Assembly (NCBI GenBank): GCA_041665485.1 | Contig: JBAYIT010000002.1 | Coordinates: 69,867-133,866, forward strand | DNA: 64,000 nucleotides | Direction of reading: 5' to 3' | DNA from: Candidatus Shapirobacteria bacterium | GTDB taxonomy: Bacteria > Patescibacteriota > Microgenomatia > UBA12405 | In this document: in pieces, positions 17,413 through 43,937 of the stretch | Position numbering within the stretch: the stretch's first letter is position 1 | Layout of the letters: the number at the start of each line of letters is the position of its first letter | Notes under the pieces: model-generated | The model's input: the letters and a program-made list of their open reading frames with translations, nothing else | What the model was told of the DNA's origin: nothing | Database searches by the model: none | Translations under genes and position numbers: made by a program

Positions 17413-17746
17413 TTTTTACGACCTTCTTAATTGCCATTTCCGAAACCAACTTAGCAATTTGTTTTTGCAATCGATTTATCCTGATATGATTTTCAAACAT
17501 CACATAAGCCAAAATTATCAAAGCCATTACGTTACCGAGATCAAACAAACGAATGAAGAACAGTTCTTTAACCAAGGGCTCTAAATATTTTGGAAAAGAG
17601 GTAATAAACAACAATCCACCCCAGACAGTAACCCACACCATTGCCCCTTTAGCCCCAATTTCCTTTTTCTTCCAATACAAATAAACATTGTAAAGCATGA
17701 AAAAAGAAAAAATAAAGGCAATTAATTGAACTCCCAATATATTCAT
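17402..17746 (-). CDS. small membrane protein co-transcribed with a GT2 (GtrA-like/DUF2304-like role)
   Basis: 114 aa with 2-3 TM segments and a basic C-terminal tail. It lies immediately downstream of a DPM1-like GT2, as in Gtr cassettes. Confidence 0.4.
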   Translation of the reverse strand: MNILGVQLIAFIFSFFMLYNVYLYWKKKEIGAKGAMVWVTVWGGLLFITSFPKYLEPLVKELFFIRLFDLGNVMALIILAYVMFENHIRINRLQKQIAKLVSEMAIKKVVKNVK

Positions 17747-17748
17747 AA

Positions 17749-18420
17749 TTATTTTATGAAGAACCAGTAGGGGATTTGGGTTAAAATTTTCATCGCATCA
17801 AAAAGCGACACCCCTTTGTACTTATCAATGTAAATTGTATCAACCTTTAGTTCCTTAAAGGCAATTTTATTTTTCCCCACCTTGGTTGCCATTTCCGTTT
17901 CAATCCCATACCGCGTCGAATTCCATTTAATTATTTCGTAAACCTCCTTTCTAAACCCCAGATAACCACAAAGTAGATCTTTTTTCTTAATTCCAAATAA
18001 AACATTAACTAAGTGGGCCGCAAAAATATTCCCCAACTTTCTGATTAGGGGCATTCCCTTATTTAACTCTCTGTACCCAAAAACTACCGGGTAGTCAGCC
18101 AGACATTTCCTAAATTCGGGAATGTATCTCGGGTTATGTTGGCCATCGGCATCTAGAAATAACACCGCTTGAGCCCCTTTTATAAAGGCGTATTTTGCCC
18201 CGGTCTTCATTGCTGCTCCCTTGCCTAAATTAATCGCGTGCCTTAATAGCGAAATCTGATGTTCTCCGGCAAAACTCTTGGTTAATAATTCAAAAGAATT
18301 ATCAGCCGACCCGTCATCAACCACCACCACCTCACCGTCATGTATCTTCAAAACTGCTTCAACCGTATTTACCGCCCTCTTTCCTTCGTTATATACCGGA
18401 ATAATTATTGTTAAATTCAT
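17749..18420 (-). CDS. glycosyltransferase family 2, polyprenyl-phosphate sugar synthase-like (DPM1/GtrB-like)
   Basis: 223 aa. LTIIIPVYNEGKRAVNTVEAV...VVVVDDGSADNS and DADGQH are GT2 DxD/DAD motifs. The small size is typical of GtrB/DPM1-like enzymes. Confidence 0.7.
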   Translation of the reverse strand: MNLTIIIPVYNEGKRAVNTVEAVLKIHDGEVVVVDDGSADNSFELLTKSFAGEHQISLLRHAINLGKGAAMKTGAKYAFIKGAQAVLFLDADGQHNPRYIPEFRKCLADYPVVFGYRELNKGMPLIRKLGNIFAAHLVNVLFGIKKKDLLCGYLGFRKEVYEIIKWNSTRYGIETEMATKVGKNKIAFKELKVDTIYIDKYKGVSLFDAMKILTQIPYWFFIK

Positions 18421-29465: not shown

Positions 29466-30593
29466 ATGCGACTTTTGTTTGTTTCTCACATCCACCCACC
29501 TGGAGTTGACGGTGGCTCAAAAATAATCTGGAAACTAAGAGATTATTTCCAAAATAACGGCCACCAAACCTTGTCCCTGGCCACCAATCTTTATTCTACT
29601 GATGATTTTGTTAGATCCAACCCTAAAGCTAACAAGTTTACTCAAAACAATCTCTTTCTTCTTCCGACCTATCGCCTCCATCGCCGTCTCCCCAAACCGG
29701 TTTTTAAGATTGCTTCTTTTATCAAGTTTCTAGTTTCTTGTTTCAAGTTCCGCCCTGATTTCATAGTTGCTGGCCCACTCCCCACTACTATTATTTTTTA
29801 CGCCATCTTAATAAAGTTTTTAACTAGAGCAAAATTAATTTTTATTCCTTGCTTCCACGAAAAAGATTCAGAATTCACCTCCCTTTTTATCATCAAAGCC
29901 CTCCGCCAAGTCGATCTTCTCTGCACCCTCACCCACCACGAAGTTTCTGTTCTAACTAGGAACTATCATCTAAAATCTAACAACTGTTTTGTATTAGGCG
30001 CAGGCATCGACCACTCTTTTCTTATCAGTAAATTCACTAAGCCCAAAAAACAAAATTTATTATTTCTTGGCAACTTTGCCGCTCATAAACAAGCCGAACT
30101 TCTCATCAAATCATTTGCTATTCTCTTAGCCAAATATCCCCATCTCACCCTTACTCTAGCCGGCCAAAAAACTCTCTACTACCCTAAAATTTTAGCAACT
30201 CTCAAAAAACTCCCTCTCTCAATTCGTCAAAAAATTAAAATATATCCTAAACGCTATAGCACTAGCGCACTAGCGCACTTCCTATCTAATTGCTCTTTTC
30301 TAGTTCTACCCTCAATTCACGAAAGTTTTGGTTTGGTTTTCATTGAGGCTCTCGCCCGTGGCCGAGCGGTTATTGGCGCCGATATTGGACCGGTTTCGGA
30401 ACTTATTGCCCAAACCGGTGGTGGTCTTACTTTCAAACCCAAATCAATTCCTTCGCTTACTAAAGCCATTTCTAAACTTCTTAGTTCACCCGTTCTTTCT
30501 CAAAAAATGGCCCAAACCGGATATCAATACATCAAAGATCACTACACTTGGGATAAAATAGGGGACAGGCTATGCCAAAAAATCGCATGTTAG
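29466..30593 (+). CDS. glycosyltransferase, GT4-like
   Basis: C-terminal IHESFGLVFIEALARGRAVIGADIGPVSELI is the GT4 E-x7-E motif. Contains an internal 8-mer tandem duplication at 30261-30279. Confidence 0.7.
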   Translation: MRLLFVSHIHPPGVDGGSKIIWKLRDYFQNNGHQTLSLATNLYSTDDFVRSNPKANKFTQNNLFLLPTYRLHRRLPKPVFKIASFIKFLVSCFKFRPDFIVAGPLPTTIIFYAILIKFLTRAKLIFIPCFHEKDSEFTSLFIIKALRQVDLLCTLTHHEVSVLTRNYHLKSNNCFVLGAGIDHSFLISKFTKPKKQNLLFLGNFAAHKQAELLIKSFAILLAKYPHLTLTLAGQKTLYYPKILATLKKLPLSIRQKIKIYPKRYSTSALAHFLSNCSFLVLPSIHESFGLVFIEALARGRAVIGADIGPVSELIAQTGGGLTFKPKSIPSLTKAISKLLSSPVLSQKMAQTGYQYIKDHYTWDKIGDRLCQKIAC

Positions 30594-31036
30594 CATTACT
30601 TTTCATACCATTTTTTTTCTTACTCTATTTTCTATTTTTAAAAAACAACAACGATATCCGTCAAATCCGCTTACAAATCGGTGATAAATCTTTCTCCCTA
30701 GAAGTTGCCTCCGCTATTTGGCAACAAAGCAGGGGCCTGTCCAATCGCTCATCTTTATGCCCAAATTGCGGTATGTTGTTTGTTTTCCCAGAATCCCACA
30801 TTCAAACATTTTGGATGAAAGACACCCTTATCCCTCTCGATATAATTTTTATTGATACATTAGGTAAAATAGTTACTATTCACACTGCCAACCCCCAACC
30901 AAATACACCCATAAACAAACTCAAAACTTATTCCTCAACAAAAAATGCCCAATACGTTATCGAGCTCAATGCCGGCCAAGCAAAACTGTTAAACTTAACC
31001 ATCGGTCAAACCCTACCTCTACCTCTAACTTTATAA
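30572..31036 (+). CDS. DUF192 (COG1430) family protein, secreted/membrane anchored
   Basis: N-terminal TM, then GLSNRSSLCPNCGMLFVF...FWMKDTLIPLDIIFID..G.IV and YVIELNAGQ match the conserved DUF192 core (GMLFvF, fWMkNT.iPLDiiFi). Confidence 0.6.
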   Translation: MPKNRMLALLFIPFFFLLYFLFLKNNNDIRQIRLQIGDKSFSLEVASAIWQQSRGLSNRSSLCPNCGMLFVFPESHIQTFWMKDTLIPLDIIFIDTLGKIVTIHTANPQPNTPINKLKTYSSTKNAQYVIELNAGQAKLLNLTIGQTLPLPLTL

Positions 31037-31057
31037 CTTTCTAACTTTATAACTTTC
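31026..31057 (+). repeat. octanucleotide tandem repeat (taactttN)x4 spanning the DUF192 stop and the RBS region of the downstream GT4
   Basis: taacttta taactttc taacttta taactttc. It ends 11 nt before the ATG at 31069. Confidence 0.75.
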
Positions 31058-31068
31058 AAACTTAATTA

Positions 31069-32187
31069 ATGATTATTGGCATTGATGTTTCCGCCATTCC
31101 CTATGGTACCGGTGTTAGTAGCTACACTCTGAATTTAGTTCGTCATTTGCTCCGTATTGATAAAACTAACATTTACAAACTTTTTTTCTCCTCTCTCCGC
31201 CAGCCCCTACCTCCAGAAATCCAAGAACTTAAAGGAAAGAAAAATGTCAAAGTTTTCCACTTTCGTCTACCACCAACCTTTCTTGAGGTAATCTGGAACC
31301 AGCTTTATGTTTTACCCATCGAGCTTTTTATCGGTAAATGCGACGTCTTTCACACCTGGGATTGGTATCAACCTCCCTCACTTAACGCCAAAATTGTTAC
31401 CACCGTCCACGACCTGATTCCCTTTCTCTATCCTCAATGGCAACATCCCAAAACCATTACTACTTTCAAACGAAAATTTAACCAAGCCACCAGACACCCC
31501 ACCTCTTTTATTTGTGTTTCCCAAAACACCCGCACTGATCTTCTTAAACTATTCCCTAACATAAACTCCAAAAACATTACTATTATCTATGAAGCCGCCG
31601 AAGACAAATATTGCCCCCAAACCAAAGATAAAATCCAAAAGGTTAAAAAAATCTACGGACTCAACTCTTTTATTCTTGCCCAAGGAACTCGGGAACCACG
31701 AAAAAATCTTGATCGACTTATTAAAGCCTTCATTAAGTTCAAAGAACTCCATCCCCAAAACCAGACTGAATTAGCCATTACCGGCAAATATGGCTGGGGC
31801 CAAGATATTACCCACCCCCAACATTCTTATATCAAAATTCTAGGATATATTCCCGAAAAAGATATGCCCTCGCTTCACTCCGCCGCTCTTTGCTTAGCCT
31901 ACCCATCCCTCTATGAAGGTTTTGGCCTTCCGGTTATCAAATCCCTCAAGGTTGGCACCCCTGTTATTACCAGTAACACCTCATCTCTTCCAGAAGTCGC
32001 TGGCAACGCCACCATTTTGGTCAACCCAACCTCCGTCAAAGAAATAACCTTAGCCCTAACCAAAATAATTACCCAAAGCAACCTTCGTCAACAACTCAAA
32101 AGCATAAGTTTGGCTCAAGCTAAAAAGTTTAGTTGGACAATTACCGCCCGCCAAACCCTTTCCCTTTATCAATCCCTAATTAAATAA
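31069..32187 (+). CDS. glycosyltransferase, GT4-like
   Basis: [34 protein letters not shown] is a GT4 motif. Confidence 0.7.
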   Translation: MIIGIDVSAIPYGTGVSSYTLNLVRHLLRIDKTNIYKLFFSSLRQPLPPEIQELKGKKNVKVFHFRLPPTFLEVIWNQLYVLPIELFIGKCDVFHTWDWYQPPSLNAKIVTTVHDLIPFLYPQWQHPKTITTFKRKFNQATRHPTSFICVSQNTRTDLLKLFPNINSKNITIIYEAAEDKYCPQTKDKIQKVKKIYGLNSFILAQGTREPRKNLDRLIKAFIKFKELHPQNQTELAITGKYGWGQDITHPQHSYIKILGYIPEKDMPSLHSAALCLAYPSLYEGFGLPVIKSLKVGTPVITSNTSSLPEVAGNATILVNPTSVKEITLALTKIITQSNLRQQLKSISLAQAKKFSWTITARQTLSLYQSLIK

Positions 32188-32249
32188 ATTTAATAATTTA
32201 ATAATTTAAAATTGACTAAAAATTTAAAATTAAAAATTAAAAATTTCCT
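32188..32249 (+). repeat. AT-rich intergenic micro-repeats (aatttaat x2-3; aaaaatt x2-3) immediately upstream of the GT4 start
   Basis: aatttaataatttaataatttaaaatt...aatttaaaattaaaaattaaaaatt. No obvious purine-rich RBS. Confidence 0.6.
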
Positions 32250-33338
32250 ATGCTGATAGGTATCGACGGCAACGAAGCCAATCAACCAATTAGGGCCGGT
32301 GTTGGCCAATATGCTTTTCATATTCTTTGTAACTTAGCCAAACTTGATCAGCAAAACCAATATCTTATCTATCTTAAAGACCAACCTCTTTCTGATATGC
32401 CCAAGACCTCCAAAAATTGGCATTATCTAGTTTTCGGCCCCAAAAAACTCTGGACTAAGTTTGCCCTCCCCGTTTATCTCTTTACCCACTTCCCCAGACC
32501 TAATGTTTTCTTCTCTCCAAACCAATATTCACCTATCTTCTCTCCTTGCCCCACCATTCCCACTGTTCACGACATTGGTTATCTCACTTACCCCGAACAA
32601 TTTACCAAAAAAGATCTTTTCCAATTAACTTATTGGACCAAAGCTTCTATTTTTCGAGCTAAATACATTGTCGCTGTTTCTGAGTTTACCAAAAATGAGC
32701 TTATAAAAACTTATCATCTTGACCCCCAGAAAATCTCCATCGTCTACAACGGAGTAGACAGTCCCCCAATTACCGATTACCGATTACCAATTACCAAATT
32801 TAAAATTAATCAACCCTTCTTCCTCTCCGTCGGCACCCTTAAACCAAACAAAAATATTCCCTATATACTCGAAGCTTTTTCTTTATTTTTAACAAAGCAA
32901 CCCAACTACCAGCTAGTTATTGCCGGCAAAAAGGGTTGGCTTTTTGACGAAATATTTTCTACTGTCAAGAAATTAAAACTGGAATCTAAAGTTATTTTTA
33001 CCGATTACATCAGCGAAAACGAAAAATGGTGGCTTTACACTCAGGCTAGGGCCACCCTTATCCCCAGCCTTTATGAAGGTTTTGGTATTCCGGCCATCGA
33101 AAGCCAAAGAGTCAGCACTCCCGTTATTGCCAGCAACATCGAATCTTTAAAAGAAATACTCGACAAATCAGCTTTATTCGTCGACCCCAAAAACTATTTT
33201 GACCTAGCCAAAAAAATGCATGAAATCATTAATCCCAAAGTTCGGAAAGAATTAATTACTGCCGGACTTTCCCAAAGTCAAAAATTCACCTGGACAAACT
33301 CTGCTAAAACCTTAATCAACCTCTTTAATCAGTTATAA
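32250..33338 (+). CDS. glycosyltransferase, GT4-like
   Basis: [33 protein letters not shown] is a GT4 motif. A paralogue of 31069-32187. Contains an in-frame heptamer repeat at 32769-32796. Confidence 0.7.
32769..32796 (+). repeat. heptanucleotide tandem repeat (attaccN)x4 inside the GT4 coding sequence
   Basis: attaccg attaccg attacca attacca. In frame it encodes ITDYRLPIT. Confidence 0.75.
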
Positions 33339-33346
33339 TCAAAACT

Positions 33347-33943
33347 ATGAATGAGTACGTTGGCCAACCAGTCTCCATCAGCAATATTCTTCCCAAAATT
33401 ACTAACCGAACTAAAACTATCTTTCTCGAATTCTGGTTATATGTTTTACGTCTTGTTGGCCTAATTCCTAGCCATACTATCCGCAATCTCTTTTACATCA
33501 TTTCCGGTATTAAAATGCCCTTTTTTGGTTCTGTCATTCATCTTGGCGCCAACTTTTTCACTCCTCAAGGCATTACTATCGGCCAAAACACCATTATCGG
33601 CTACAGATCTTTTCTTGACGGAAGAGGAAAACTTAAAATCGGCAACCATGTTGATATTGCCTCAGAAGTTATGATCTACACCGATGAACACGATGTTAAT
33701 TCAGAAAATTTCGGCAATTCTTTCGCTCCAGTAATTATTGAAGACTATGTCTTCATTGGACCCCGCTCAATTATTCTTCCTGGCGTAACTATCAGTAAAG
33801 GCGCCGTCGTTGCTGCCGGCGCTGTCGTTACTAAAAGCATCCCTCCAGGTGAAATTTGGGGCGGAGTTCCAGCCAAAAAAATAAAAGATCGTGGTCTAAA
33901 AAGCTACAATTACCGCCTCGGTCGGCCCATGCTTTTCCAATGA
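33347..33943 (+). CDS. sugar O-acetyltransferase, left-handed beta-helix (hexapeptide repeat; WbbJ/LacA-like)
   Basis: Repeating [LIV]G-x4 hexapeptides ([41 protein letters not shown]) and C-terminal [15 protein letters not shown]. Confidence 0.75.
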
Positions 33944-34488
33944 TCAAAAAAATTATCCTAATCTTAGTTCTTGTCTCTAATCTCTTATTTCTATCTTATC
34001 TTCTTTCTCCCACCCCCAGCCTTCCACCCCTAGCCAACAGCGCTATATCCAATCTCCCCGGCGACACCGTTCAAGTTTCCAATGTCTCCGGCTTTTTTAC
34101 CAACCAAACCCGGCAACAAGTCATTAATTTTTACAAAGCCAACTATACCGGCCCGTTCCGCATTATTCTCAATCACCCTCCAGAAAAAGCTAGAGAGGTA
34201 ATTGTTGACACTATCCCAAGCTATTATTTCGAAGAATTTATTCTCCCCTTTAAAGAAACACTATATATTAATGGTTATGAGTGGCAAAACGATGTTTTTA
34301 CCAAACTGGAAAACAGACTTAAAAATAAACTTATTTACGACAGCAAAGAGTATTTTTCTAAAATCACTATTCGTCGTTTTCCTGTCAGTATCAAAAACCG
34401 CCTCGTTAATTTCTTCATCGTTGAAGCTGGAATTTTAGCCATAATTAGTATCTACTACATTAAAGTCTTCAAGAAAAATGCCAGTTAA
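33940..34488 (+). CDS. hypothetical membrane-anchored protein
   Basis: Start at ATG 33940, overlapping the upstream stop. N-terminal TM helix ([18 protein letters not shown]) and a C-terminal TM helix. No motif. Confidence 0.35.
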
Positions 34489-35452
34489 ACCAATACTATC
34501 TATCATTATCGTTTCCTATAATGTTGCTCCTTTCATTGAAAATTGTTTAAAATCAATTTTTGCTGACAAAAACCTAGATTTTAATGGTGACTCTAAGAAT
34601 TCCAAAACCCCCGCCGAGCTCATCATCGTCGACAACCATTCCTCCGACGCCAGCGTTTCGATCATTAAAAATTTTCAAATTAAAAATTGTTTAAAAATTT
34701 CAAATTTCAAATTAAAAATCAGTCATTCCAATCAAGGTTTTTCCCAAGCCAATAATCTCGGCGTCAAACAAGCCCAGGGCAACTACCTCCTCTTCTTGAA
34801 TCCTGACACTGTCATCCTCCATTCCTCAATTAGCCAATCTCTTGATTGGTTATCTAGTCACCCTGAAGCTCTTGGTTGCACTGCCCAACTTCTCAACACC
34901 GACAAAACCATTCAACCATCAGGTGGCTTTTTTCCCAATCTATTAAATCTCTTTACTTGGTCAACCAACCTCGACGACCTACCCCTGACAAACGATCTTA
35001 TTAAGCCCATTCACCCCCACAGTCCTATTTTTTATACTCATCCAAAATTCTATCTCCAAGACCACTCCCAAGATTGGCTTACCGGCGCCTGTATTCTCCT
35101 CCGCAAAAACGCCTTTGATCAAGTTGGTGGATTTGACCAAGACTACTTTATGTACGGCGAGGAATTAGAACTCTGTTATCGGTTGAAAAAAGTTTTTCCT
35201 TTAAAAAAGTTTTGGTACCTTATCGGCCCTCAAATAACCCATCTCGGTGGCGGTTCATCTGTCAATCGCCTCAATCCACTTATTAATGAATATCATGGTA
35301 TTATCGCTTTCTTTAAAAAACATCAACCCTCTTGGCAATTACCTCTCGCCAAGTTACTAATTAAATTCAACTGTCTCTGTCATTATCTTCTTTATCTTAT
35401 TAAGAAACCGGAAACCGCCAAGCTTTATCAACAAATTTTTTCCCAACTATGA
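34478..35452 (+). CDS. glycosyltransferase family 2
   Basis: ILSIIIVSYNVAPFIENCLKSI...IIVDNHSSD, GFSQANNLG, FLNPDT and YGEELELC are GT2 motifs (DxD, QxxRW-type region). Carries an AT-rich 7-mer repeat insert at 34667-34720. Confidence 0.7.
   Translation: MPVKPILSIIIVSYNVAPFIENCLKSIFADKNLDFNGDSKNSKTPAELIIVDNHSSDASVSIIKNFQIKNCLKISNFKLKISHSNQGFSQANNLGVKQAQGNYLLFLNPDTVILHSSISQSLDWLSSHPEALGCTAQLLNTDKTIQPSGGFFPNLLNLFTWSTNLDDLPLTNDLIKPIHPHSPIFYTHPKFYLQDHSQDWLTGACILLRKNAFDQVGGFDQDYFMYGEELELCYRLKKVFPLKKFWYLIGPQITHLGGGSSVNRLNPLINEYHGIIAFFKKHQPSWQLPLAKLLIKFNCLCHYLLYLIKKPETAKLYQQIFSQL
34667..34720 (+). repeat. AT-rich 7-mer tandem array (aaaaatt/tcaaatt)x7 inside the GT2 coding sequence
   Basis: aaaaatt ttcaaatt aaaaatt gttt aaaaatt tcaaatt tcaaatt aaaaatc. 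It encodes KNFQIKNCLKISNFKLKI at the same linker position as the 38412 repeat in the paralogue. Confidence 0.75.
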
Positions 35453-36828
35453 CTTTTAATCTTTTTCGTCCAATCCTTGCCATCCTCCTTCTTTTTATTC
35501 CCCTATATCCAAAATTCCCCTTGTCTTTTGCTCAAGGCGCTCAAGTCGCTTTTCGTCTTGACGACATTATCATTGCTCTAGTTTTTTTAATCTACCTCGT
35601 TAATCAGATAAAAAACCGATTTCCAATTTTAAAATTAAAGGTGACCTGGGTAATTTTAGCCTACCTTATCGCCATTACTTTAAGTAGTCTTAATGCTTTC
35701 CTAATTTACCAAACCACCCCCACCCATATTCTTCTTCTCCATCTCCTAAGACGTTTTCAATATATCTCCCTATTTTTTGTCACCCTTGAAGCCATTAAAA
35801 CCCGCCGTGATTTTAAGTTTATCTATCTTTTTACTTGCCTTGCCTTTATTGGTGTCTTTGCCTATGGCATTGGCCAAAAATACTTTAACCTTCCCATTAT
35901 TTCCACCATGAACTTTGAGTTCGCCAAAGGCCAACTCCTCCAAATGAATTTTTGGAGTCGAATCAGTTCCACTTTTGCCGGACATTATGATCTGGCCGCC
36001 TATTTAAGTGTCATTTCCGTCATCTTCTTTGGTGTCTTTTTGTCTCAAAAAAACAAACTTTATCGCTTCTTTTCTTTCATCCTTTGGTTAATGGCTTTCT
36101 ACCTACTCACTTTAACTGCCGCCAGAATCTCCACCTTTGCCTACTGGGGCGGAGTCACTCTCCTCTGTCTTCTTCTCAAACGTTTCTTCTGGATTATTCC
36201 CACCAGTCTCTTGGTGGTTCTAAGCATCGTTAGCTCCAAAGATCTTAACCAACGTCTGCTTGCCACCATCCCCAGTATCAAGCCTTATTTTTCCCAGAAT
36301 ATCGCCAAACCAACTCCAGCAACCATTCCCACTATTACCCCAGTTCTTACACCAATTCCAACATCTAAAATCCAAGATCTAACATCTAAGATCTCTCCAA
36401 TACCCACCGTTTTCCGCCACAAACCTGAAGAGTTTCCTCCAGTTGATGCTGACGCCGGCGTTGCCAGAAGTGGCGAAATCCGTTTTAATGTCGAATGGCC
36501 CCGGGCCATTACCGCTTTTAATAAAAATAAACTATTGGGAACCGCCCCCGGCTCTATTACTTTAGCCACCGACAACGATTATCTCCGCAGTCTCGGCGAA
36601 ACCGGACTCCTTGGTTTTGTCACCTTTTGCCTCATCTTTGTTTACTTTTTTATCAATCTAATCAAAAAATCTACTGCCCTCAACCTTGTTTTTGCCACCG
36701 CCATTCTCATTGTCTTGGTCAACGCCATTTTTATCGATATTTTCGAAGCTTCAAAAACCGCCTACCTTTTTTGGATGATGATGGCTGTTTTTTATAAATC
36801 GGAAACTTTAAATGATTCAAAAGGTTAG
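35449..36828 (+). CDS. O-antigen ligase/polymerase-like (Wzy_C-like) polytopic membrane protein with Pro/Thr-rich loop
   Basis: 459 aa with more than 10 TM segments and a large hydrophilic loop (residues approx. 280-370) rich in P/T/I. The architecture resembles WaaL/Wzy. Confidence 0.45.
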   Translation: MTFNLFRPILAILLLFIPLYPKFPLSFAQGAQVAFRLDDIIIALVFLIYLVNQIKNRFPILKLKVTWVILAYLIAITLSSLNAFLIYQTTPTHILLLHLLRRFQYISLFFVTLEAIKTRRDFKFIYLFTCLAFIGVFAYGIGQKYFNLPIISTMNFEFAKGQLLQMNFWSRISSTFAGHYDLAAYLSVISVIFFGVFLSQKNKLYRFFSFILWLMAFYLLTLTAARISTFAYWGGVTLLCLLLKRFFWIIPTSLLVVLSIVSSKDLNQRLLATIPSIKPYFSQNIAKPTPATIPTITPVLTPIPTSKIQDLTSKISPIPTVFRHKPEEFPPVDADAGVARSGEIRFNVEWPRAITAFNKNKLLGTAPGSITLATDNDYLRSLGETGLLGFVTFCLIFVYFFINLIKKSTALNLVFATAILIVLVNAIFIDIFEASKTAYLFWMMMAVFYKSETLNDSKG

Positions 36829-38227
36829 TCTAATTGCCGTTTTAGTTATTGGTCTAATTCTTCGTCTTTACAAAATCGATTCTCCCCTCGCTGATTGGCA
36901 CTCTCACCGCCAAGCTGACACCGCCTCGGTCACCCGTAATCTTTCTCAAAATTTAGAAAATTTTTTTACCCCCACTTATCATGATTTAAGTAATCTTCAA
37001 TCCGGCCAAGAGAATCCCCAAGGTTACCGCATGGTTGAGCTCCCTCTTTACAATCTCTTTTCCCTAATCACCGTCAAAATTACTGGGCAAAGTCTCGAAA
37101 TTAGTAGCCGTCTAACCTCAATTCTCTTCTCTCTTGGTAGTAGCTTTATTATTTTTCTCATTGTCCGCCGTCTTACTAATCTTTTTTGGCCATCTCTCCT
37201 TTCTACTGCTGTCTTTTTATTTTTGCCTTTTAGTATCTATTATTCTCGGGCAATTCTTCCCGAAAACGTGGCCGTTTTTTTTATGCTCCTCTGCCTCTAT
37301 TTCTTTCCAAAAAATCTTATTGTCGCTGGGATTACTCTCGGACTTTCTTTTCTTGTCAAGCCATTTACCGGCTTTATCGTCTTTCCGGCCCTAATTTATT
37401 TAACCCTCTCCCATCGTCCACCACTTTTAAAGCTTTTCATCTTTTTTGTTCTGGCGATCCTGCCATTCTTTTTCTGGCGTCAACATATTTCCCATTTTCC
37501 TCAAGGCATACCCGCCTCTGCCTGGTTGTTTAACAACAGCGATAAGCCAATTTTTCCCGAATGGTATCGTGGTTATAATTTAACCTTCATCAACCATCTG
37601 GTTGCCTTCCGTCCCAGTTGGTTTAACTGGCTCTTCAACATCCGCATCAATCAGCTGATCCTCGGTTCTTTTGGCCTTGTCCCTTTTATTGTCGGTTTTG
37701 CCTATCGTCATCGTCAGGTAAAAATAACTAATTTTTCACTTTTTCTCGGAACCATGTTCTATTTTATTATCGTTGCTCAAGGCAATATCCAGCACGACTA
37801 TTATCAAATTCTTATCATTCCTCAAATTGCTATTTCCACCGGCCTTGGTCTCTATTATCTTCGGCAACATTCCTTTTTTCTATTTCTTATTCCCGTAACT
37901 ATTGGCTTAGTCATCAGCTGGTCTCAAATCAAAAATTATTACCATATTAATAATCAAAATATTATTAAAGCCGGCCAAATTGCCAATCAACTTCTTCCTC
38001 AAGATGCTATTGTTGTTGCCCCCTACAACGGCGACACAAGCTTTCTTTATCAAATTAATCGTTCCGGTTATCCCATCGATATTTACGATCTTGATTCAAT
38101 CAAAAATCTCCACCCCAATAATCCATTATTCTTGGTTTCAGTAAACTTTGATGACTATACCAACAAAATTATCAAATCAAATACTGTCATAATCCAAAAT
38201 AAAGATTTTGTAATTGTTAAACTATAA
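36812..38227 (+). CDS. GT-C fold membrane glycosyltransferase (ArnT/PMT-like)
   Basis: 471 aa. N-terminal TM, then loop SPLADWHSHRQADTASVTRN (an acidic motif as in PMT_2 family proteins). More than 10 TM segments. Confidence 0.5.
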   Translation: MIQKVSLIAVLVIGLILRLYKIDSPLADWHSHRQADTASVTRNLSQNLENFFTPTYHDLSNLQSGQENPQGYRMVELPLYNLFSLITVKITGQSLEISSRLTSILFSLGSSFIIFLIVRRLTNLFWPSLLSTAVFLFLPFSIYYSRAILPENVAVFFMLLCLYFFPKNLIVAGITLGLSFLVKPFTGFIVFPALIYLTLSHRPPLLKLFIFFVLAILPFFFWRQHISHFPQGIPASAWLFNNSDKPIFPEWYRGYNLTFINHLVAFRPSWFNWLFNIRINQLILGSFGLVPFIVGFAYRHRQVKITNFSLFLGTMFYFIIVAQGNIQHDYYQILIIPQIAISTGLGLYYLRQHSFFLFLIPVTIGLVISWSQIKNYYHINNQNIIKAGQIANQLLPQDAIVVAPYNGDTSFLYQINRSGYPIDIYDLDSIKNLHPNNPLFLVSVNFDDYTNKIIKSNTVIIQNKDFVIVKL

Positions 38228-38231
38228 ACAA

Positions 38232-39158
38232 ATGACCCCCGACCTATCTATTGTTATTTTGAATTTCAATACCGGTGACTATCTAAAAAAATGTCTTGAA
38301 AGTATCTACCAAAGCCAACTTAAACATCAAATAGAAGTTATTGTTGTTGACAACGCCTCCACCGATGACAGTATCGATCAAGCCAAAAAACTTGATTTTA
38401 AGTCCAAAAAAATTCTAGATTCTAGATTCTTGATTCTAGATTCTAATTTGGGTTTTGCTCAAGGCAACAATCAAGGAATTAAATTAGTCAACCCTCAAAG
38501 TAGATACGTTCTTTTCCTAAATCCCGACACCACCGTCAATTCCGACACTCTCTCTGGCACCATCGATTATCTCGATTCTCACCCTAAAATCGACGCCGCC
38601 ACCGTCAATGTAGTTTTTGTCAAAACCGGCCAAACTCAACCCGAATGTCATCGCGGTTTCCCCAGTCCTGGGAACGCCTTCTTCCACTTTTTTCTTCCTT
38701 TTCTTCCTAAAATCTTTCCCAAATCTAAATTATTTAATGGTTATTTCCTTGGCCACCTTGACTTTAATCAACCTCAAATTATTGACGCCTGTGTTGGCGC
38801 CTTCATCGTTCTTAAAAAGAGGGTAGGGGAGACTGTTGGCTGGTGGTGTCCCGACTATTTTTTCTACGGCGAAGACCTTGATCTTTGTTACCAAATTCAA
38901 CAACACGGTTTTAAACTCTGGTATCTCCCCCAATACCAAATTCACCATTTTCAAGGTATTTCTTCCGGAGTTAACAATGCCACCTCCAAGGCCTCTCGGT
39001 CTACTAAAATAAAAATCGCCAAGGCCTCTACAGACGCCATGAGAATTTTTTATCGCCGAAATCTTCTCCACCATTACTCGCCACTTTCCCAAAAAATAAT
39101 TCTCTTTGGGATTAAATTGCTAGAACTTCAACGCCTTTTCAAAGCCAAATATTTATGA
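38232..39158 (+). CDS. glycosyltransferase family 2
   Basis: Start at ATG 38232. LSIVILNFNTGDYLKKCLESI...VIVVDNASTDDS, GFAQGNNQG, FLNPDT and YGEDLDLCYQI. A paralogue of 34478-35452. Contains a heptamer tandem repeat at 38412-38446. Confidence 0.7.
   Translation: MTPDLSIVILNFNTGDYLKKCLESIYQSQLKHQIEVIVVDNASTDDSIDQAKKLDFKSKKILDSRFLILDSNLGFAQGNNQGIKLVNPQSRYVLFLNPDTTVNSDTLSGTIDYLDSHPKIDAATVNVVFVKTGQTQPECHRGFPSPGNAFFHFFLPFLPKIFPKSKLFNGYFLGHLDFNQPQIIDACVGAFIVLKKRVGETVGWWCPDYFFYGEDLDLCYQIQQHGFKLWYLPQYQIHHFQGISSGVNNATSKASRSTKIKIAKASTDAMRIFYRRNLLHHYSPLSQKIILFGIKLLELQRLFKAKYL
38412..38446 (+). repeat. imperfect heptanucleotide tandem repeat (attctag)x5 inside the GT2 coding sequence
   Basis: attctag attctag attcttg attctag attctaa. 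In frame it encodes ILDSRFLILDSN between the DxD and GFAQGNN motifs. Confidence 0.8.
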
Positions 39159-40273
39159 AACACCTAGTTATTGACGCCCGATGGTACGGCCCCAAACACA
39201 CCGGTATTGGCCGTTATACTCAAAACTTAATTTTAGAGTTAATCAAAATTAAAGACTTTCAGAAAAATATTAAATTAACTCTCTTAATTCACCCGGAAGA
39301 TAAGAAAAACATTCAATCGGAACTTGGATTAGATATTAATTTTGTCACCACCAACATTACTCACTATTCTTTCCTCGACCAGATCATTACCCCCTTTATT
39401 CTTTACCATCTTCAGCCCGACCTCGTCCACTTTACCCACATTGACAAACCGATTCTTTATTTCAGTAAAAGTGTTGTTACTATCCACGACCTGATTAAAA
39501 ACTTTTCTACCGGCCCGGAAACTACCACCAAAAATATCGGTATCTACTGGATCAAACAATTTGCCTATCTTCTAAATAGCTGGTTTTCCATTAAATTCAA
39601 TTCTCTTATTGTTCCCAGTAATTATTGGAAAAATTATCTTATTTCTCATTACCACCTTCTAGCTTCGCAGGTCACCACCACCCACGAAGCCGTCGACCCC
39701 AAATTCCTAAAATTAAAAACTAAGAACTACCAACTAAGAACTAAGAACTATCTCTTATATACTGGCAATCTCTACCCTCATAAAAATCTCGACGTTGTCC
39801 TTCAAACCCTTACCAAACTACCCAATCTCAAACTAAAAATAATTTCCAAGCCTTCAGTTTTTCTCGATCGTCTAAAGGCCACCATTCAAGAACTCCATCT
39901 TCAAAAACAAGTCGAATTTTTAGGTTTCGTCCCCGACAATGATTTTCAAAAAATATATCAAGAAGCCCTCGCTTTTGTTTTCCCCAGTCTCATGGAAGGT
40001 TTTGGCCTACCGCCACTCGAAGCCATGAGCTTAGATTGCCCGGTTATTTCTTCAAATAGTAGCTGTTCTCCGGAAATCTACCAACAGGCTGTCCTTTATT
40101 TTAATCCAAAAGACCCAGATGATTTAGTAAAACAAATTAATCTTCTCACTACTAAGCCCAGTCTTCGTCAACAATTAATTGCCAACGGCTACCAACAAGT
40201 TAAAAAATATTCATGGTCCAAAACAGCCAAACAAACCCTTGCGGTCTATAAAAAACTCTTAAATACTAATTGA
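39155..40273 (+). CDS. glycosyltransferase, GT4-like
   Basis: PSLMEGFGLPPLEAMSLDCPVISSNSSCSPEI is a GT4 motif. Heptamer repeat at 39720-39750. The stop lies inside the heptamer array at 40268-40299. Confidence 0.7.
   Translation: MKHLVIDARWYGPKHTGIGRYTQNLILELIKIKDFQKNIKLTLLIHPEDKKNIQSELGLDINFVTTNITHYSFLDQIITPFILYHLQPDLVHFTHIDKPILYFSKSVVTIHDLIKNFSTGPETTTKNIGIYWIKQFAYLLNSWFSIKFNSLIVPSNYWKNYLISHYHLLASQVTTTHEAVDPKFLKLKTKNYQLRTKNYLLYTGNLYPHKNLDVVLQTLTKLPNLKLKIISKPSVFLDRLKATIQELHLQKQVEFLGFVPDNDFQKIYQEALAFVFPSLMEGFGLPPLEAMSLDCPVISSNSSCSPEIYQQAVLYFNPKDPDDLVKQINLLTTKPSLRQQLIANGYQQVKKYSWSKTAKQTLAVYKKLLNTN
39720..39750 (+). repeat. heptanucleotide tandem repeat (ctaagaa)x4, imperfect, inside the GT4 coding sequence
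   Basis: ctaagaa ctaccaa ctaagaa ctaagaa cta. It encodes KTKNYQLRTKNY. Confidence 0.75.
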
Positions 40274-40299
40274 AAATTGAAAATTGAAAATTGAAAATT
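40268..40299 (+). repeat. heptanucleotide tandem repeat (aattgaa)x4 spanning the stop of one GT4 gene and the TTG start of the next
   Basis: aattgaa aattgaa aattgaa aattgaa aattt. The upstream TGA stop (40271-73) and the downstream TTG start (40284) both lie within the repeat units. Confidence 0.8.
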
Positions 40300-41384
40300 T
40301 CAAGATTGCTATTTTTTTTGATTGGCTCAATCAATGGGGCGGGGCCGAGCGTCTTCTTGGTGACATTTTAACTATTTTCCCCAATGCTAATCTTTATACT
40401 TCAATCTGGGACAAGTCAAAAACACCTTGGTTACCAAGCTCCACCAAAGTCTTTGTTTCAAAACTAAATAATTTTTCTTTTTTTCGCCAAAACTCACCTC
40501 TAAGCCTGGCTCTCCAACCCTTATTCTTGGAACAATTTAACTTTAAAGACTATCAACTAGTTATCTCTCTCACTTCCCAAAACGGCCACTGTCTCCTTAC
40601 TCCACCAGATACAACTTTTGTTTGCTATCACTTAAACCCCAACCGCTATCTTTACCAAATTTCTCACTCTTTACTTAAACATATTTATTCTTTTTACAAA
40701 AAAATAGACTGGATCTTTGCCCAAAGGCCAGACTACTACTTCACCACTTCTCCAACCGTCCAAAATCGAATCAAACAAACCTATGGCCGAGAAGCAGAAA
40801 TTATTCACCCCGGAGTCGACACTGATTTTTTTTGCCCCCCAAAAAACCCCAAACCAGGAAACTATTTTCTCGTTGTCTCCCGTCTGGTTGTTCATAAAAA
40901 AATTGAGCTGGCTATCCGCACTTGTCATCAGCTCAAACAAACGCTTGTTATTGCCGGTACCGGCCGAGACGAAACCCGCCTTAAAGAAATTATCCCCTCG
41001 TCTCCATTTATAAAGTTTGTTGGTCAAGTTTCAGACAAGAAACTATTAACCCTCTACCAAAATTGTCTGGCTCTAATCTGCCCTCAAGAAGAAGATTTTG
41101 GCTTAACCCCACTTGAAGCTATGGCCTGTGACAAACCGGTTATTGCCTACAACCAAGGTGGTATTCCCGACACCATTATCAACCATAAAACCGGCATTTT
41201 ATTTGCCAAACAAACAACCGAATCATTGGCTGAAGCCATTAATTTATTTTTTAAAACTAAGTTCGAAGTTCTAGACTGCCGAAGACAAAGTCTTAAATTT
41301 AGTCGTCGTCGCTTTATGTTAAACTTTACTCATTCACTAAACACAATTCTCCATGATCAACCAAAAATCCAAATTTCTGGTTAA
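40284..41384 (+). CDS. glycosyltransferase, GT4-like (TTG start inside heptamer repeat; start uncertain)
   Basis: N-terminal IAIFFDWLNQWGGAERL is typical of the GT4 N-domain. C-terminal PQEEDFGLTPLEAMACDKPVIAYNQGGIPDTI. Confidence 0.7.
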   Translation: MKIENFKIAIFFDWLNQWGGAERLLGDILTIFPNANLYTSIWDKSKTPWLPSSTKVFVSKLNNFSFFRQNSPLSLALQPLFLEQFNFKDYQLVISLTSQNGHCLLTPPDTTFVCYHLNPNRYLYQISHSLLKHIYSFYKKIDWIFAQRPDYYFTTSPTVQNRIKQTYGREAEIIHPGVDTDFFCPPKNPKPGNYFLVVSRLVVHKKIELAIRTCHQLKQTLVIAGTGRDETRLKEIIPSSPFIKFVGQVSDKKLLTLYQNCLALICPQEEDFGLTPLEAMACDKPVIAYNQGGIPDTIINHKTGILFAKQTTESLAEAINLFFKTKFEVLDCRRQSLKFSRRRFMLNFTHSLNTILHDQPKIQISG

Positions 41385-42024
41385 AACAAGAACCATCCTC
41401 TTTAACCTTTGGAAACGGTTAGTTGATATCTTTAGTTCTCTCTTTCTCCTCCTAATATTTTCACCAATAATGATAATTACGGCTATTATTATTAAAGTTA
41501 GCTCCCCGGGGCCGATATTGTTTAGTCAACTTCGGGTTGGTAAAAATAGTCGCCCATTTCGGATGTACAAATTCCGATCAATGTTTATCGGCGACAACGA
41601 CAAAAGACTTCGTGAAGAACACCCAAAACTATGGGAAAAATACAAAGCTTCTGACTGGAAACTCCCGCTTGAAGAAGATCCGCGGATTACCCCCATCGGC
41701 AAATTCATCAGAAAATTTACCATCGACGAATTTCCTCAACTTTTCAATGTTTTCATTGGCGATATGAGCTTGGTTGGTCCTCGAGCTTACCGCGAAGAAG
41801 AACTCCAGGAGTACTCCAAAAAATACCCTCAAAGCCAAGGACACATCGACGATCTCCGTCAGATTAAACCGGGCATCACTGGCCTCTGGCAAACATCGGG
41901 TAGAAACGAACTACTCTTTGAAAAAAGAGCCGAGCTTGACTCCTACTACGCCCGCAATCTTTCTTTTCGCCAAGATATGAGAATTATTCTTAAAACACCC
42001 CTCGCCATGCTTTCTCGCTGGTAA
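41353..42024 (+). CDS. polyprenyl-phosphate sugar phosphotransferase (bacterial sugar transferase family; WbaP/PglC-like, short single-TM form)
   Basis: SPGPILFSQLRVGKNSRPFRMYKFRSM and DEFPQLFNVFIGDMSLVGPRA are hallmark motifs of the monotopic phosphoglycosyl transferases. Confidence 0.8.
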   Translation: MINQKSKFLVKTRTILFNLWKRLVDIFSSLFLLLIFSPIMIITAIIIKVSSPGPILFSQLRVGKNSRPFRMYKFRSMFIGDNDKRLREEHPKLWEKYKASDWKLPLEEDPRITPIGKFIRKFTIDEFPQLFNVFIGDMSLVGPRAYREEELQEYSKKYPQSQGHIDDLRQIKPGITGLWQTSGRNELLFEKRAELDSYYARNLSFRQDMRIILKTPLAMLSRW

Positions 42025-42053
42025 TATTAACTTTTTTCCATTAGACTTACTAA

Positions 42054-43937
42054 GTGAAAATAAAAAACATTCTCATTTCTATTATTTCTGTTCTAGTAAT
42101 TCTTGGCACTGTTCTTAGTTGCCTCGGCTTCTTTTTTGTTTATCTTCCCGGAAAGGAAGTTCAACAATCAGTTCAAAACGCAGTCGATAAGACCAAAACA
42201 CTCCAACAGGCTATTAGCTCCAAAGATCTTAAACTGGCCAAAGAAACATTAGTCGACGTCCGCCGACAACTCCAGGTAGTTAGTCAAAAAACAGAAAAAT
42301 TTAAATTTTTTCAAAAGTTACCCCGATTAAAATATTACTATCAAGACTCGCAGACTTTTCTTGATATTGCCAGTAATTCTATTGATATTGGCGATATTGT
42401 TATCGCTGCCATCGAGCCATATTCTGATTTTCTTGGACTTGCTGGTAGTAGCACCGATAGTGCTAAAACCACCCAAGATAGAATTGCTTTCCTAACCCAA
42501 AGTGTTGAAAGCCTGATTCCTCACCTTAATAGCATCGAAACCAAATTTGGCCAAATCAAATCTGACCTCGATAAAATTGATCCCAATCTATATCCTGAAA
42601 ATCTTCGTGGCTACCCGCTTCGCTCATACCTAATGAAGGCCAAACAAATGACTGACGAAACCTACGGCTATTTTAAAGACAGCCGTCCGTTACTTGAAAA
42701 AACTGCTTGGCTACTTGGCAAAGATAAACCCCGAAACTACTTTCTCATTTTTCAAAATGATGCGGAACTTCGCCCGACTGGGGGATTTTGGACCGCCTAC
42801 GGTATTCTCAAAGTCGATAATGGCAAAGTTACACCCCTAATCTCTGATGATATCTACGCTCTCGACGCCAAATTTCAAAGCACCATTCCTGCCCCTCGCC
42901 CGATCAAGGCCTATCATCTCAACGTCCCTTACTGGAATTTACGGGACATGAATATCTCTCCAGATTTTCCTGAAAGCATCAAAACTTTCTTAGGATACTA
43001 CAATAAAATATCTGGCAACAAAGACAAAATAGACGCTGTCGTCGCCATTGACACCCAAGTTCTGGTTGACCTTGTTAAGGTTTTGGGTAGAGTTGGTGTT
43101 TCCGGCTGGGGAAACTTTTCTGCCGACCCCGACAAACGCTGTGATGGTTGCCCTCAAATTATCTATCAACTTGAATGGATTGCCGGCCGGCCCAGAAATT
43201 ACATTGAAACTGATCGCAAGGGCTTTCTTGGCCCTCTAATGCAAGCCCTGTTAAGCAATGCTATGGGGTCAGAAAAAAGTAAAATCCCTCTCTTGGTAGA
43301 AGCCGCCGTTAATAATATTCACCAGAAACATATCCTCTTCTATTTTATTGACCCTTTAATGCAACAGTCAGCCGTTACTGCCAATGTTTCCGGCTCAATC
43401 TATCAATCACCGGCTAAGATGGACTATTTTCATCTCAACGATGCCAATATGAGCAGTGCCAAAACAAATTTATTTTTAAAACAAAAAATTAAACACGAAA
43501 TTATTTCTCAAAACGGTGTCGTCGAACATAAAGTCACCATTACTTATCAAAATCCGTCCAAAGCTAGTAATTGTAATCTAGAAAAAGGAGACCTTTGTCT
43601 CAACGCCCCTAAATATCGTGATTGGTTTAGGTTCTATGTTCCCCTCGGTTCCAAATTAGTTAAAATGACCGGCTCTGAAGTTGATCCGGTTCTTTACGAA
43701 GAACTAGGCAAGCAAGTTTTTGAAGGATTTTATGGCAACAAATATCCTCTTTATGCTCAAGGTAGCCTTAAAACATCAATCCAATACCAATCATCAGTCG
43801 CCCCAAGTAGTCAATATACTCTCTACCTCCAAAAACAACCCGGAACCAAGGCTATTCCCTATGAACTTTGGGTCAATGGTCAAAAATACGACGAGTTTTC
43901 CTGGACAACCGACAAGATCATCAAACTCTCTCTTTAA
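42054..43937 (+). CDS. DUF4012 domain protein (exported, N-terminal TM anchor)
   Basis: GTG start. FLIFQNDAELRPTGGFWTAYGILKVDNGKV matches the DUF4012 conserved ELRPTGGF motif. 627 aa. Confidence 0.55.
   Translation: MKIKNILISIISVLVILGTVLSCLGFFFVYLPGKEVQQSVQNAVDKTKTLQQAISSKDLKLAKETLVDVRRQLQVVSQKTEKFKFFQKLPRLKYYYQDSQTFLDIASNSIDIGDIVIAAIEPYSDFLGLAGSSTDSAKTTQDRIAFLTQSVESLIPHLNSIETKFGQIKSDLDKIDPNLYPENLRGYPLRSYLMKAKQMTDETYGYFKDSRPLLEKTAWLLGKDKPRNYFLIFQNDAELRPTGGFWTAYGILKVDNGKVTPLISDDIYALDAKFQSTIPAPRPIKAYHLNVPYWNLRDMNISPDFPESIKTFLGYYNKISGNKDKIDAVVAIDTQVLVDLVKVLGRVGVSGWGNFSADPDKRCDGCPQIIYQLEWIAGRPRNYIETDRKGFLGPLMQALLSNAMGSEKSKIPLLVEAAVNNIHQKHILFYFIDPLMQQSAVTANVSGSIYQSPAKMDYFHLNDANMSSAKTNLFLKQKIKHEIISQNGVVEHKVTITYQNPSKASNCNLEKGDLCLNAPKYRDWFRFYVPLGSKLVKMTGSEVDPVLYEELGKQVFEGFYGNKYPLYAQGSLKTSIQYQSSVAPSSQYTLYLQKQPGTKAIPYELWVNGQKYDEFSWTTDKIIKLSL

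Follow-up and report, generated by a model that had tools for sequence, protein, structure and literature searches.

Heptanucleotide Repeat Arrays in a Conserved Envelope-Glycan Operon of Microgenomates, Probably Kept in Frame and Now Fixed

Heptamer Arrays in the Glycan Operon

The window analysed here is a stretch of 64,000 nt from a Candidatus Shapirobacteria bacterium (Microgenomates, Candidate Phyla Radiation or CPR; GenBank assembly GCA_041665485.1, contig JBAYIT010000002.1, positions 69,867 to 133,866 of the forward strand), the nearest species-level relatives of which are metagenome-assembled genomes (MAGs) of Shapirobacteria and Woesebacteria. On its plus strand, at 29466..43937, ORF (open reading frame) calls, Pfam matches and synteny delimit an envelope-glycan operon of 14 co-directional genes: GT4a, DUF192, GT4b, GT4c, a hexapeptide acyltransferase, a gene of unknown function and GT2a in its first half, then a polytopic membrane protein (no Pfam match), PMT_2, GT2b, GT4d, GT4e, Bac_transf and DUF4012, i.e., five glycosyltransferases (GTs) of type GT4 and two of type GT2 according to Pfam, plus PMT_2 and Bac_transf. 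Loci of Shapirobacteria, Woesebacteria, Amesbacteria and other Microgenomates share this gene order. Rather than a variable island of surface antigens, the operon is a syntenic core locus that has been conserved. Within and between its genes lie short tandem arrays, mostly with a unit of seven nucleotides, and it is the anatomy, the evolution and the meaning of these arrays that we consider below.

Arrays were called with Tandem Repeats Finder (TRF), the main cut-off being a period of 7 and at least 3.5 copies. Over the whole window, eight arrays reach this cut-off, every one of them within 29725–40299, and none is found in the other 53 kb. A null model of 100 dinucleotide-preserving shuffles in 1-kb blocks yields on average 0.10 arrays per window and 0.01 within the locus, and never more than 1. 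The heptamer arrays are real and far above chance, and they fall under the long simple sequence repeats (LSSR) of Mrazek 2007, i.e., units of 5–11 nt exceeding the chance length for the composition (8 vs 0.10). It could be argued that an A/T-rich, strand-skewed genome is bound to produce such tracts by chance or by compositional bias, the units being A/T-rich overall and the skew extreme, but the shuffles of the locus itself, the array-free remainder of the window, which is of similar composition, and the lack of enrichment at neighbouring lags (see below) leave this explanation with a negligible probability. A first-pass annotation of this DNA had already listed short tandem arrays in the locus and considered them concentrated there. 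TRF recovers an array at each of the listed positions and confirms the concentration, even though two arrays had escaped the list (29725–29749 and 36357–36394), while the statement that almost all units are 7 nt long holds for most of the arrays but fails for those at 30259 and 31024, both with 8-nt units.

Arrays Within Genes

All the arrays described here and in the next section are on the plus strand and were called by TRF. In GT4a, AGTTTCT x3.6 (29725..29749; 83% matches; longest perfect run of 2.0 copies) encodes residues 87–95, and the related locus L007 holds AGTTACT x3.6 at the same alignment position; farther on in the same gene, a perfect array of period 8, GCACTAGC x2.6 (30259..30279), encodes residues 265–272. 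The array of GT4c, CCAATTA/CCGATTA x4.6 (32766..32797; residues 173–183; longest perfect run of 2.9 copies), sits between the Glyco_transf_4 and Glycos_transf_1 domains, at a hot spot shared with L053, L081 and L082. That of GT2a (34665..34719; residues 63–81) lies between the DxSxD motif and the N-x-G-F motif, at a hot spot that is occupied in L007, L010, L037, L045, L047 and L090 too; it had been described as a sevenfold repeat, and an array is indeed present, but it is read as TTAAAAA/TCAAATT (7 nt x4.1) or as a 25-mer x1.9 rather than as a clean x7. In the polytopic membrane protein, AACATCT x5.0, or a 14-mer x2.7 (36357..36394), encodes residues 303–316, within a Pro/Thr-rich variable stretch that is indel-rich among sister species. 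Finally, ATTCTAG x4.9 (38412..38445) corresponds to residues 61–72 of GT2b, and TAAGAAC x5.3 (39714..39750) to residues 187–199 of GT4d, the commonest hot spot in relatives.

The six intragenic arrays of period 7 (GT4a, GT4c, GT2a, membrane protein, GT2b and GT4d) are all interrupted, their longest perfectly periodic stretches being of 13–20 nt, i.e., 1.9–2.9 copies, and the first-pass annotation was right to call them imperfect. In five of the six, as in 40 of the 68 intragenic arrays over all the loci of our survey (see below), the consensus unit contains a stop triplet, and such arrays can therefore never be perfect in an open frame. Their host ORFs are open because of point changes at the in-frame stop positions. 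In GT2b, the units read ATTCTAG, ATTCTAG, ATTCTTG, ATTCTAG and ATTCTAA, and the lone internal mismatch (TAG to TTG in unit 3) falls on the would-be in-frame stop, while in the GT4d array both in-frame TAA positions are changed, one to TAC and the other to TAT. The codon layouts show the three frames of the heptamer being used in turn, a 7-residue block taking three units. A change of one unit had been expected to shift the frame, and this is what simulation gives: gaining or losing one or two units shortens every host ORF.

Arrays at Gene Junctions

The operon has just three sizeable junctions at which genes do not overlap, and each is filled by an array. Between DUF192 and GT4b, TAACTTTA x3.9 (31024..31063; period 8, or a 16-mer x2.5) covers the stop codon of DUF192 (TAA, 31034–31036) and ends 6 nt short of the GT4b ATG at 31069. 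Between GT4b and GT4c, the 62-nt spacer from the GT4b stop (32187) to the GT4c ATG (32250) is filled by indel-containing, A/T-rich arrays (32177..32246), whose periods are 7 and 8 and which end 4 nt before this ATG; heptamer arrays are present at the same junction in L007 and L014. Between GT4d and GT4e, AATTGAA x4.6 (40268..40299) is the sole perfect period-7 array of the window. Its unit 1 contains the GT4d stop (TGA, 40271–40273) and its unit 3 the GT4e start (TTG, 40284), with units 3–5 encoding MKIENF, the beginning of GT4e, so that slippage in this array alters the spacing of the two genes and neither reading frame.

The tracts at 31026 and 32188 had been placed at ribosome-binding sites, which we could not reproduce, as neither place shows a Shine-Dalgarno (SD)-like motif. 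Over the window, an SD-like motif within 20 nt upstream of the start codon is found for 7 of 47 genes, and the leaders are A/T-rich, which suggests that initiation in this organism is largely SD-independent. Upon RNA folding, the junction arrays are predicted to be unstructured (minimum free energy, MFE, of 0 to −3 kcal/mol; z of 0.2–1.0), fully so for the array at 31024 (MFE 0) and with z = 0.23 for that at 40268, the spacer at 32177 being a partial exception (MFE −9.3 kcal/mol, z = −1.7). Moreover, the array at 40268 carries TGA in every frame in addition to the TTG start. From their sequence, the junction arrays can be described as A/T-rich unstructured spacers providing stops in all frames as well as the start codon for the following gene. 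Other functions were considered for the arrays and rejected: promoter-like and terminator-like signals are about as numerous as in shuffled sequence, and RNA hairpins are not predicted in the arrays of the window, except for a weak self-pairing of ATTCTAG (z = −2.2). Rfam has no matches in the window.

Comparison with Other Assemblies and Sister Species

Other copies of the locus are almost invariant. The one of ENA ERZ27249449 is 100% identical over 21,119 nt, those of Logan SRR6484324 and SRR18595301 are 100% identical as well, and the one of JGI 3300037810 differs by four single-nucleotide polymorphisms (SNPs), all outside the arrays, with no gaps. Tract length does not differ among four other assemblies (L003, L004, L005 and L001); L003, with its 4 SNPs, and L004 show no indels over 21 kb, and there are none in L002 either. 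Three sister species (66–80% protein identity) were recovered via homologue look-up: L086 has 78% nucleotide identity to the window and L089/L090 have 73%, while the GT4d protein of L091 is 73% identical to that of the window. The GT2b array is exactly as long in L086, L090 and L091 as in the window, and that of GT4d varies by no more than one codon. The AATTGAA junction array is found with the same four perfect units in L089, and it is also present at the contig end of L091; in L086, it is degenerate and GT4e starts with ATG. A look for the same tracts in orthologues had been suggested; arrays do stand at the same positions in relatives, with changes in the sequence of their unit.

GT2a is apparently truncated in L089, by a C to A nonsense SNP (position 1112 of L089, TCA to TAA) that lies away from the arrays. 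L089 and L090, two assemblies of one species, differ by six SNPs, of which four are a C in L090 and an A in L089, and DUF4012, too, comes out fragmented in the gene calls of L089. The L089 variants may stem from sequencing damage or else from a genuine pseudogenising change.

The reading frame of the arrays was then surveyed in the window and in 80 loci around PMT_2 homologues (1.2 Mb, 113 merged period-7 arrays). Not one of about 66 arrays well inside long ORFs is out of frame (OFF), which puts the frequency of OFF alleles below roughly 5%. Fifteen arrays did look OFF, a long ORF being restorable by 1–2 units, but all of them proved to be stop/start junctions of consecutive genes. At 90% identity, the protein clusters of the eight proteins hold 1–2 members each and thus yield no length variants. 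In sequenced genomes, recognised contingency genes are commonly OFF.

These results bear on the interpretation initially given to the locus, i.e., classic slipped-strand phase variation, in which the tracts would be contingency loci that slip often, frameshift the GT genes on and off, and vary the surface glycan. This interpretation can call on non-triplet units lying inside GT genes, on the truncation of the host ORFs by one or two units more or fewer, on a misalignment that has happened, as the concerted evolution described below shows, on Logan contigs that break at the perfect tract, and on the precedent of NeuO, which has an AAGACTC repeat in its 5' coding region (PMC3046976). Yet, no intragenic tract contains a long uninterrupted run of identical units, the perfect runs amounting to only 2.0–2.9 units, and the units are not stop-free on the expressed strand, five of six window arrays having a consensus that could never be perfect in frame. 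In addition to the absence of OFF alleles, there is no copy-number polymorphism among assemblies, which are all identical in this respect, or among sister species, where the array length is the same, the operon belongs to the conserved syntenic core, and the other GT cluster of the window is without tracts. Altogether, we regard contingency loci as very improbable here, and the appealing but unsupported notion that this CPR bacterium phase-varies its surface glycans can be set aside.

Concerted Change of Units and Placement in Proteins

Although its length is constant, the GT2b array is built from ATTCTAG in the window, ATACTTA/ATACTAA in L086, TTCTTAG in L090 and ATTCTNA in L091. The window peptide, ILDSRFLILDSN, is (ATTCTAG)n translated, with TAG turned into TTG, and ILNTKYLILNTN, found in about 40 of 120 GT2b homologues, is the three-frame translation of (ATACTAA)n, with the in-frame TAA turned into AAA. 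These units differ at positions 3 and 7, and both changes, applied array-wide, explain at once the replacements N to D, T to S, K to R and Y to F. In GT4d, the repeated heptamer is the one encoding the conserved K-[N/S]-Y with which strand one of the C-terminal domain opens. The window has AAGAACT as this unit, L086 and L090 have AAATCAT, and L010 has GAAAATT. The linkers K-L-[E/K]-I-x-N-Y of about 30 of 115 GT4d homologues are the three-frame translation of (AAATTGR)n. The arrays undergo concerted unit change.

Length changes are also seen between close homologues (protein accessions of our survey in P). P0082 differs from P0080 and P0088 (90–92% identity) by exactly 7 residues within the array-encoded linker of GT4d, and so do P0109 and P0129 (83% identity) within their array-encoded linker. 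Such 7-residue steps, which characterise variable number tandem repeats (VNTRs) of the NeuO type, are observed in relatives and not in the species of the window. Misalignment thus appears to operate over evolutionary time, and three-unit in-frame steps are on record; such steps make homogenisation possible without frameshifted intermediates. In P0021 and P0024, 89.5% identical overall, the linker arrays and the peptides are unrelated.

Two observations concern the GT2 paralogues. In L045, the N-terminal DNA of GT2a and GT2b, heptamer array included, is near-identical within the same genome (7620–7780 vs 13890–14040), which suggests a recent gene conversion or duplication. Likewise, judged by eye, L090 has a GT2a array that for several tens of bases closely matches that of GT2b in the window.

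In the AlphaFold2 model of GT4d (mean predicted local distance difference test, pLDDT, of 93.5), residues 186–198 form a coil that joins a short helix (182–185) to the first strand of the C-terminal domain (199–203), between the Rossmann-like domains. The two 10-residue blocks over this coil average a pLDDT of 82–83, among the lower values of the model, and the linker is the only long consensus-free stretch in an alignment of 120 sequences.

One may wonder whether selection on proteins could account for the arrays on its own, the enzymes needing a 7-residue repeat (e.g., ILNTKYL-ILNTN or TKNYQLR-TKNYLLY) and the DNA period being a by-product of A/T-rich codons. The peptides are widespread enough to make this conceivable (xLNTKYLILNTN in about 40/120 GT2b homologues, KL[EK]IxNY in about 30/115 of GT4d), and the GT2b array is modelled as an ordered strand. 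Nevertheless, a 7-residue repeat alone gives no 7-nt period, whereas the peptides are exact three-frame translations of a heptamer with its stop patched; synonymous and non-synonymous positions change together across units; the same periodicity exists in non-coding junctions; and P0021 and P0024 have unrelated linker peptides in otherwise highly similar proteins. Protein-level selection as the only cause thus appears improbable.

Distribution Across Microgenomates

Of the arrays with at least 3.5 copies in the 80 related loci (1.2 Mb), 112 have period 7, vs 14 for period 6, 22 for period 8 and 17 for period 9. Over nine hot-spot segments in 84 loci, a lag-7 identity of at least 0.76 is reached in 43 of 483 cases, while lags 5, 6, 8, 9 and 10 reach it in 0–3. 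As mapped by alignment, the hot spots of the GT4 enzymes are interdomain (GT4b residue 184, GT4c 174–178, GT4d 187–194, GT4e 189), the others being a GT2 segment (residues 54–77, in both GT2a and GT2b), a loop of PMT_2 (residue 166) and the gene junctions; in related loci, no arrays map to DUF192, the acyltransferase, Bac_transf or DUF4012. The distribution is patchy, with 42 of 66 related loci array-free, including close relatives with the same operon, and a few loci holding 5–17 arrays. Units are diverse (67 distinct ones among 113 arrays), those of the window being all mutually different, while the size of the arrays is typically 4–5.3 units, intragenic and junction arrays alike.

Strict confinement to the syntenic cluster was considered and does not hold: in relatives, the density is 0.91 arrays per 10 kb inside the cluster vs 0.76 in the adjacent flanks, where the hosts are GT paralogues, a PMT_2 paralogue, RecO and an LPG-synthase-like protein. 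The control consisted of 68 kb from the division/cell-wall and ileS regions of relatives, two of these loci coming from genomes that do bear arrays. Only three heptamer arrays occur there, two immediately upstream of start codons (ileS, rpmA) and one in a Wzy gene; the housekeeping coding sequence of these control loci contains none.

A few loci deserve separate mention. In L047 (3685–17097) and L045 (2445–14837), spacers between GT genes carry facing arrays, (AAAAGTY)n followed by (RACTTTT)n, and those at L047:7465–7570 fold as a long hairpin (MFE −23 kcal/mol, z = −4.9, equalled by no shuffle). These facing arrays are a different, structured class of heptamers, which is absent from the window. 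Perfect long arrays stand at the ends of MAG contigs in L068 (2–139, ATAACGA x19.7) and L022 (14556–14610, AGTAATT x7.9), and were probably truncated by assembly. Besides, in L095, L096 and L097, three samples of one well-sampled Shapirobacteria-like species, a lipase-like gene (LCAT/abhydrolase) on the minus strand, at about 16010–18262, has 746, 733 and 750 residues, respectively, which is an in-frame length polymorphism.

Origin and Fixation of the Arrays

In our opinion, the arrays of this locus are probably degenerate heptanucleotide microsatellites, accompanied by A/T-rich junction spacers, that arose from out-of-register pairing, were kept in frame, were homogenised in three-unit steps and are now fixed. 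The 7-nt units would have originated by out-of-register pairing, either through replication slippage or through unequal exchange, and would have survived inside tolerant protein sites, i.e., the interdomain coil of GT4 enzymes, one GT2 segment and the loops of membrane proteins, as well as in short spacers between cistrons. Because three units make one 7-residue block, selection would allow only in-frame states: in-frame stop triplets would be removed by point mutation, length would change in steps of three units (21 nt), and a change of unit would spread through the whole array over evolutionary time by concerted evolution. In the present genome, the intragenic arrays, interrupted and fixed, would behave as ordinary coding sequence and not as on/off switches.

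Several observations sit uneasily with this scenario. First, the window contains a second glycan cluster (0.6–23 kb, about 9 GT4/GT2 genes) devoid of heptamer arrays, so that the distribution is not explained by a purely genome-wide mutational process filtered by tolerance; this absence is accounted for by no explanation so far. Second, the arrays are not simple insertions, since linkers are equally long whether or not an orthologue is periodic; an array thus takes the place of existing sequence and does not lengthen it. Third, in the AlphaFold2 model of GT2b (mean pLDDT 92.9), array residues 61–68 form an ordered beta-strand and not a tolerant loop; the constant length of the GT2b array would follow from its peptide being a structural part of the fold. 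For the same reason, the more cautious proposal of the first-pass annotation, namely remnants of slippage now encoding flexible linkers, comes close to the evidence but does not extend to GT2b. Fourth, in two species pairs (L081/L082 and L045/L047), arrays are about 91% conserved vs about 70% for the flanking coding DNA, which, along with the conservation of AATTGAA in three species, hints at selection on the nucleotide sequence itself. Fifth, Logan contigs (k = 31) from three species end in the perfect 32-nt junction array. As a clonal 32-nt heptamer array has no repeated 30-mer, these breaks could reflect length variants, or equally the low coverage of a very A/T-rich sequence.

Five Logan contig ends in perfect or long arrays are found, in L005, L001, L090, L091 and L093, the positions being 32217, 40274 and 40295 of the window, 6569 of L089, 4743 of L091 and the start of L093. 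One Logan contig starts within the array at 32177, and the degenerate junction array of L086 is read through by a contig.

The hint of nucleotide-level selection opens the way to another explanation, in which the arrays would be selected cis-acting elements, i.e., heptamer-periodic stretches of about 32–35 nt kept at the RNA or DNA level. An S1-, Csp- or CsrA-like protein that aids SD-independent initiation, or coupling at junctions, might use them as single-stranded platforms, or else the perfect junction array might be a rheostat, its copy number tuning the expression of the downstream gene. Such elements would fit positions that recur while the unit sequence changes, the shared size of intragenic and junction arrays, an AATTGAA x4.6 perfectly conserved in species only about 73% identical in the flanks, arrays more conserved than their surroundings, unstructured junction arrays on the start codons of genes without SD motif, arrays upstream of ileS and rpmA in relatives, and even the array-free state of the other glycan cluster; a role of this kind has been proposed for TAACTGA repeats upstream of start codons (PMC4679880). 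On the other hand, the 67 distinct units among 113 arrays share no common motif, close relatives with the same operon are among the 42 of 66 loci that do without arrays, the window has neither Rfam matches nor an identified candidate for the binding protein, and, the junction array being mostly coding or stop-bearing, coding constraint can explain its conservation. We therefore hold this explanation as rather unlikely, though worth keeping in mind.

A more far-reaching version, which we find distinctly doubtful, would make the heptamer arrays a selected, lineage-wide device of the envelope-glycan operons of Microgenomates, combining intragenic tuning knobs with perfect, unstructured junction arrays whose copy number grades SD-independent translation of the next cistron. 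Three-unit steps and concerted unit replacement would then re-tune the interdomain linker, hence the activity or specificity of GT-B/GT-A enzymes, and the breaks of Logan contigs would be the first sign of copy-number variation of the junction within populations.

If we return to degenerate, fixed microsatellites, the less expected outcome is that non-triplet microsatellites stay in frame within conserved enzymes, at the same structural positions across a lineage of phylum level, and evolve at the level of the unit, where one nucleotide change rewrites three codons. Should populations turn out to vary in the length of the perfect junction tracts or to be polymorphic for 7-residue linker blocks, organisms with tiny genomes and few regulators would have a novel way of varying their envelope; should they not vary, the locus would be a clean example of slippage creating, then freezing, protein sequence.

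Genomic Context of the Locus

The second envelope-glycan cluster spans 680–22926, mostly on the minus strand, and comprises 4–5 GT4 and 4 GT2 genes, several methyltransferases, an acyltransferase_3, an ABC-2 transporter pair and DUF2142. Its G+C content is 0.29–0.36, vs about 0.39 elsewhere in the window, and the whole could be a variable glycan island of more recent acquisition. Within the same region, at 15724–15774, a gene of unknown function on the minus strand contains a 26-nt tandem repeat x2.0 (80% matches). On the other side of the operon, a division/cell-wall cluster including ileS occupies 44–64 kb.

Throughout the window (1–64000), the GC skew of the plus strand is about −0.3, and the GC3 skew in sense orientation is −0.58 for plus strand genes and +0.47 for minus strand genes; it follows that the glycan operon and the entire division/cell-wall cluster with ileS are on the C-rich strand. 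In Shapirobacteria-like loci, the operon is likewise on the C-rich strand (GC3 skew of about −0.3 to −0.6). Head-on conflict between replication and transcription was considered as a cause of the arrays and discarded, skew and array density being uncorrelated across 66 loci (Spearman −0.04, p = 0.75).

Comparison with Known Systems

Tandem heptamers specific to a lineage are not without precedent in Bacteria. The cyanobacterial STRR, reportedly described by Mazel et al. in 1990, are said to be lineage-specific tandem heptamers of unknown function, with a few specific and mostly intergenic sequences; by contrast, the arrays studied here have many different units and lie largely in coding sequence.

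For coding heptamers, the closest functional precedent is NeuO, the O-acetyltransferase of prophage CUS-3 in E. coli K1, in which a poly-psi VNTR of AAGACTC leaves the gene ON only at copy numbers that are multiples of three (PMC3046976). In both cases, a heptamer stands in the coding sequence of a glycan-modifying enzyme and is read in three frames, three units giving 7 residues (PMC3046976). The NeuO block belongs to a non-catalytic, disordered part of the enzyme (PMC3046976). Here, exact 7-residue steps separate close GT4d homologues. However, NeuO has 2–93 perfect, stop-free copies, a high switching frequency and numerous OFF alleles, whereas the arrays here have 4–5 interrupted copies with mostly stop-containing units, and neither OFF alleles nor strain variation are seen; no high-frequency gain or loss of single units appears in the assemblies, the sister species or the ~66 arrays of related loci. 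Moreover, the NeuO repeat is N-terminal, while these arrays are internal, in a linker or a strand. What is lacking here with respect to NeuO is thus the perfect, hypervariable tract.

The junction arrays at 31024, 32177 and 40268 rather fit the description of the TAACTGA direct repeats of Beggiatoaceae, cyanobacteria and Bacteroidetes (MacGregor 2015). These come in 2–6 copies at or upstream of start codons, provide stops in all three frames, overlap the upstream stop, are rarely accompanied by an SD motif and have occasional peripheral copies in ORFs; a role in S1-, Csp- or CsrA-type binding was proposed for them, not shown (PMC4679880). In contrast to that one conserved genome-wide heptamer, our units vary between sites and genomes, and many are inside conserved enzymes. 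For the perfect junction array, a possible model is offered by hmw1A/hmw2A of Haemophilus influenzae, where 7-bp promoter repeats outside the reading frame grade expression through their copy number (PMC8262952 and PMC2651432). The hmw tracts are long, perfect and demonstrably variable, both from strain to strain and inside a strain, while the copy number here is 4.6 in every assembly and in a sister species.

Finally, the arrays can be set against the LSSR of Mrazek, Guo and Shah (2007). In the summary of that work in PMC4679880, heptanucleotides are the commonest among units of 5–11 nt, arrays are longer than statistically expected, repeat-rich genomes are phylogenetically scattered, and polymerase slippage is put forward to explain the preference for 7 nt. 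The same patchiness from genome to genome is observed here. Within genes, the repeats of that summary mostly have triplet-divisible units, whereas in Microgenomates it is non-triplet units that recur, at the same structural positions of conserved enzymes.

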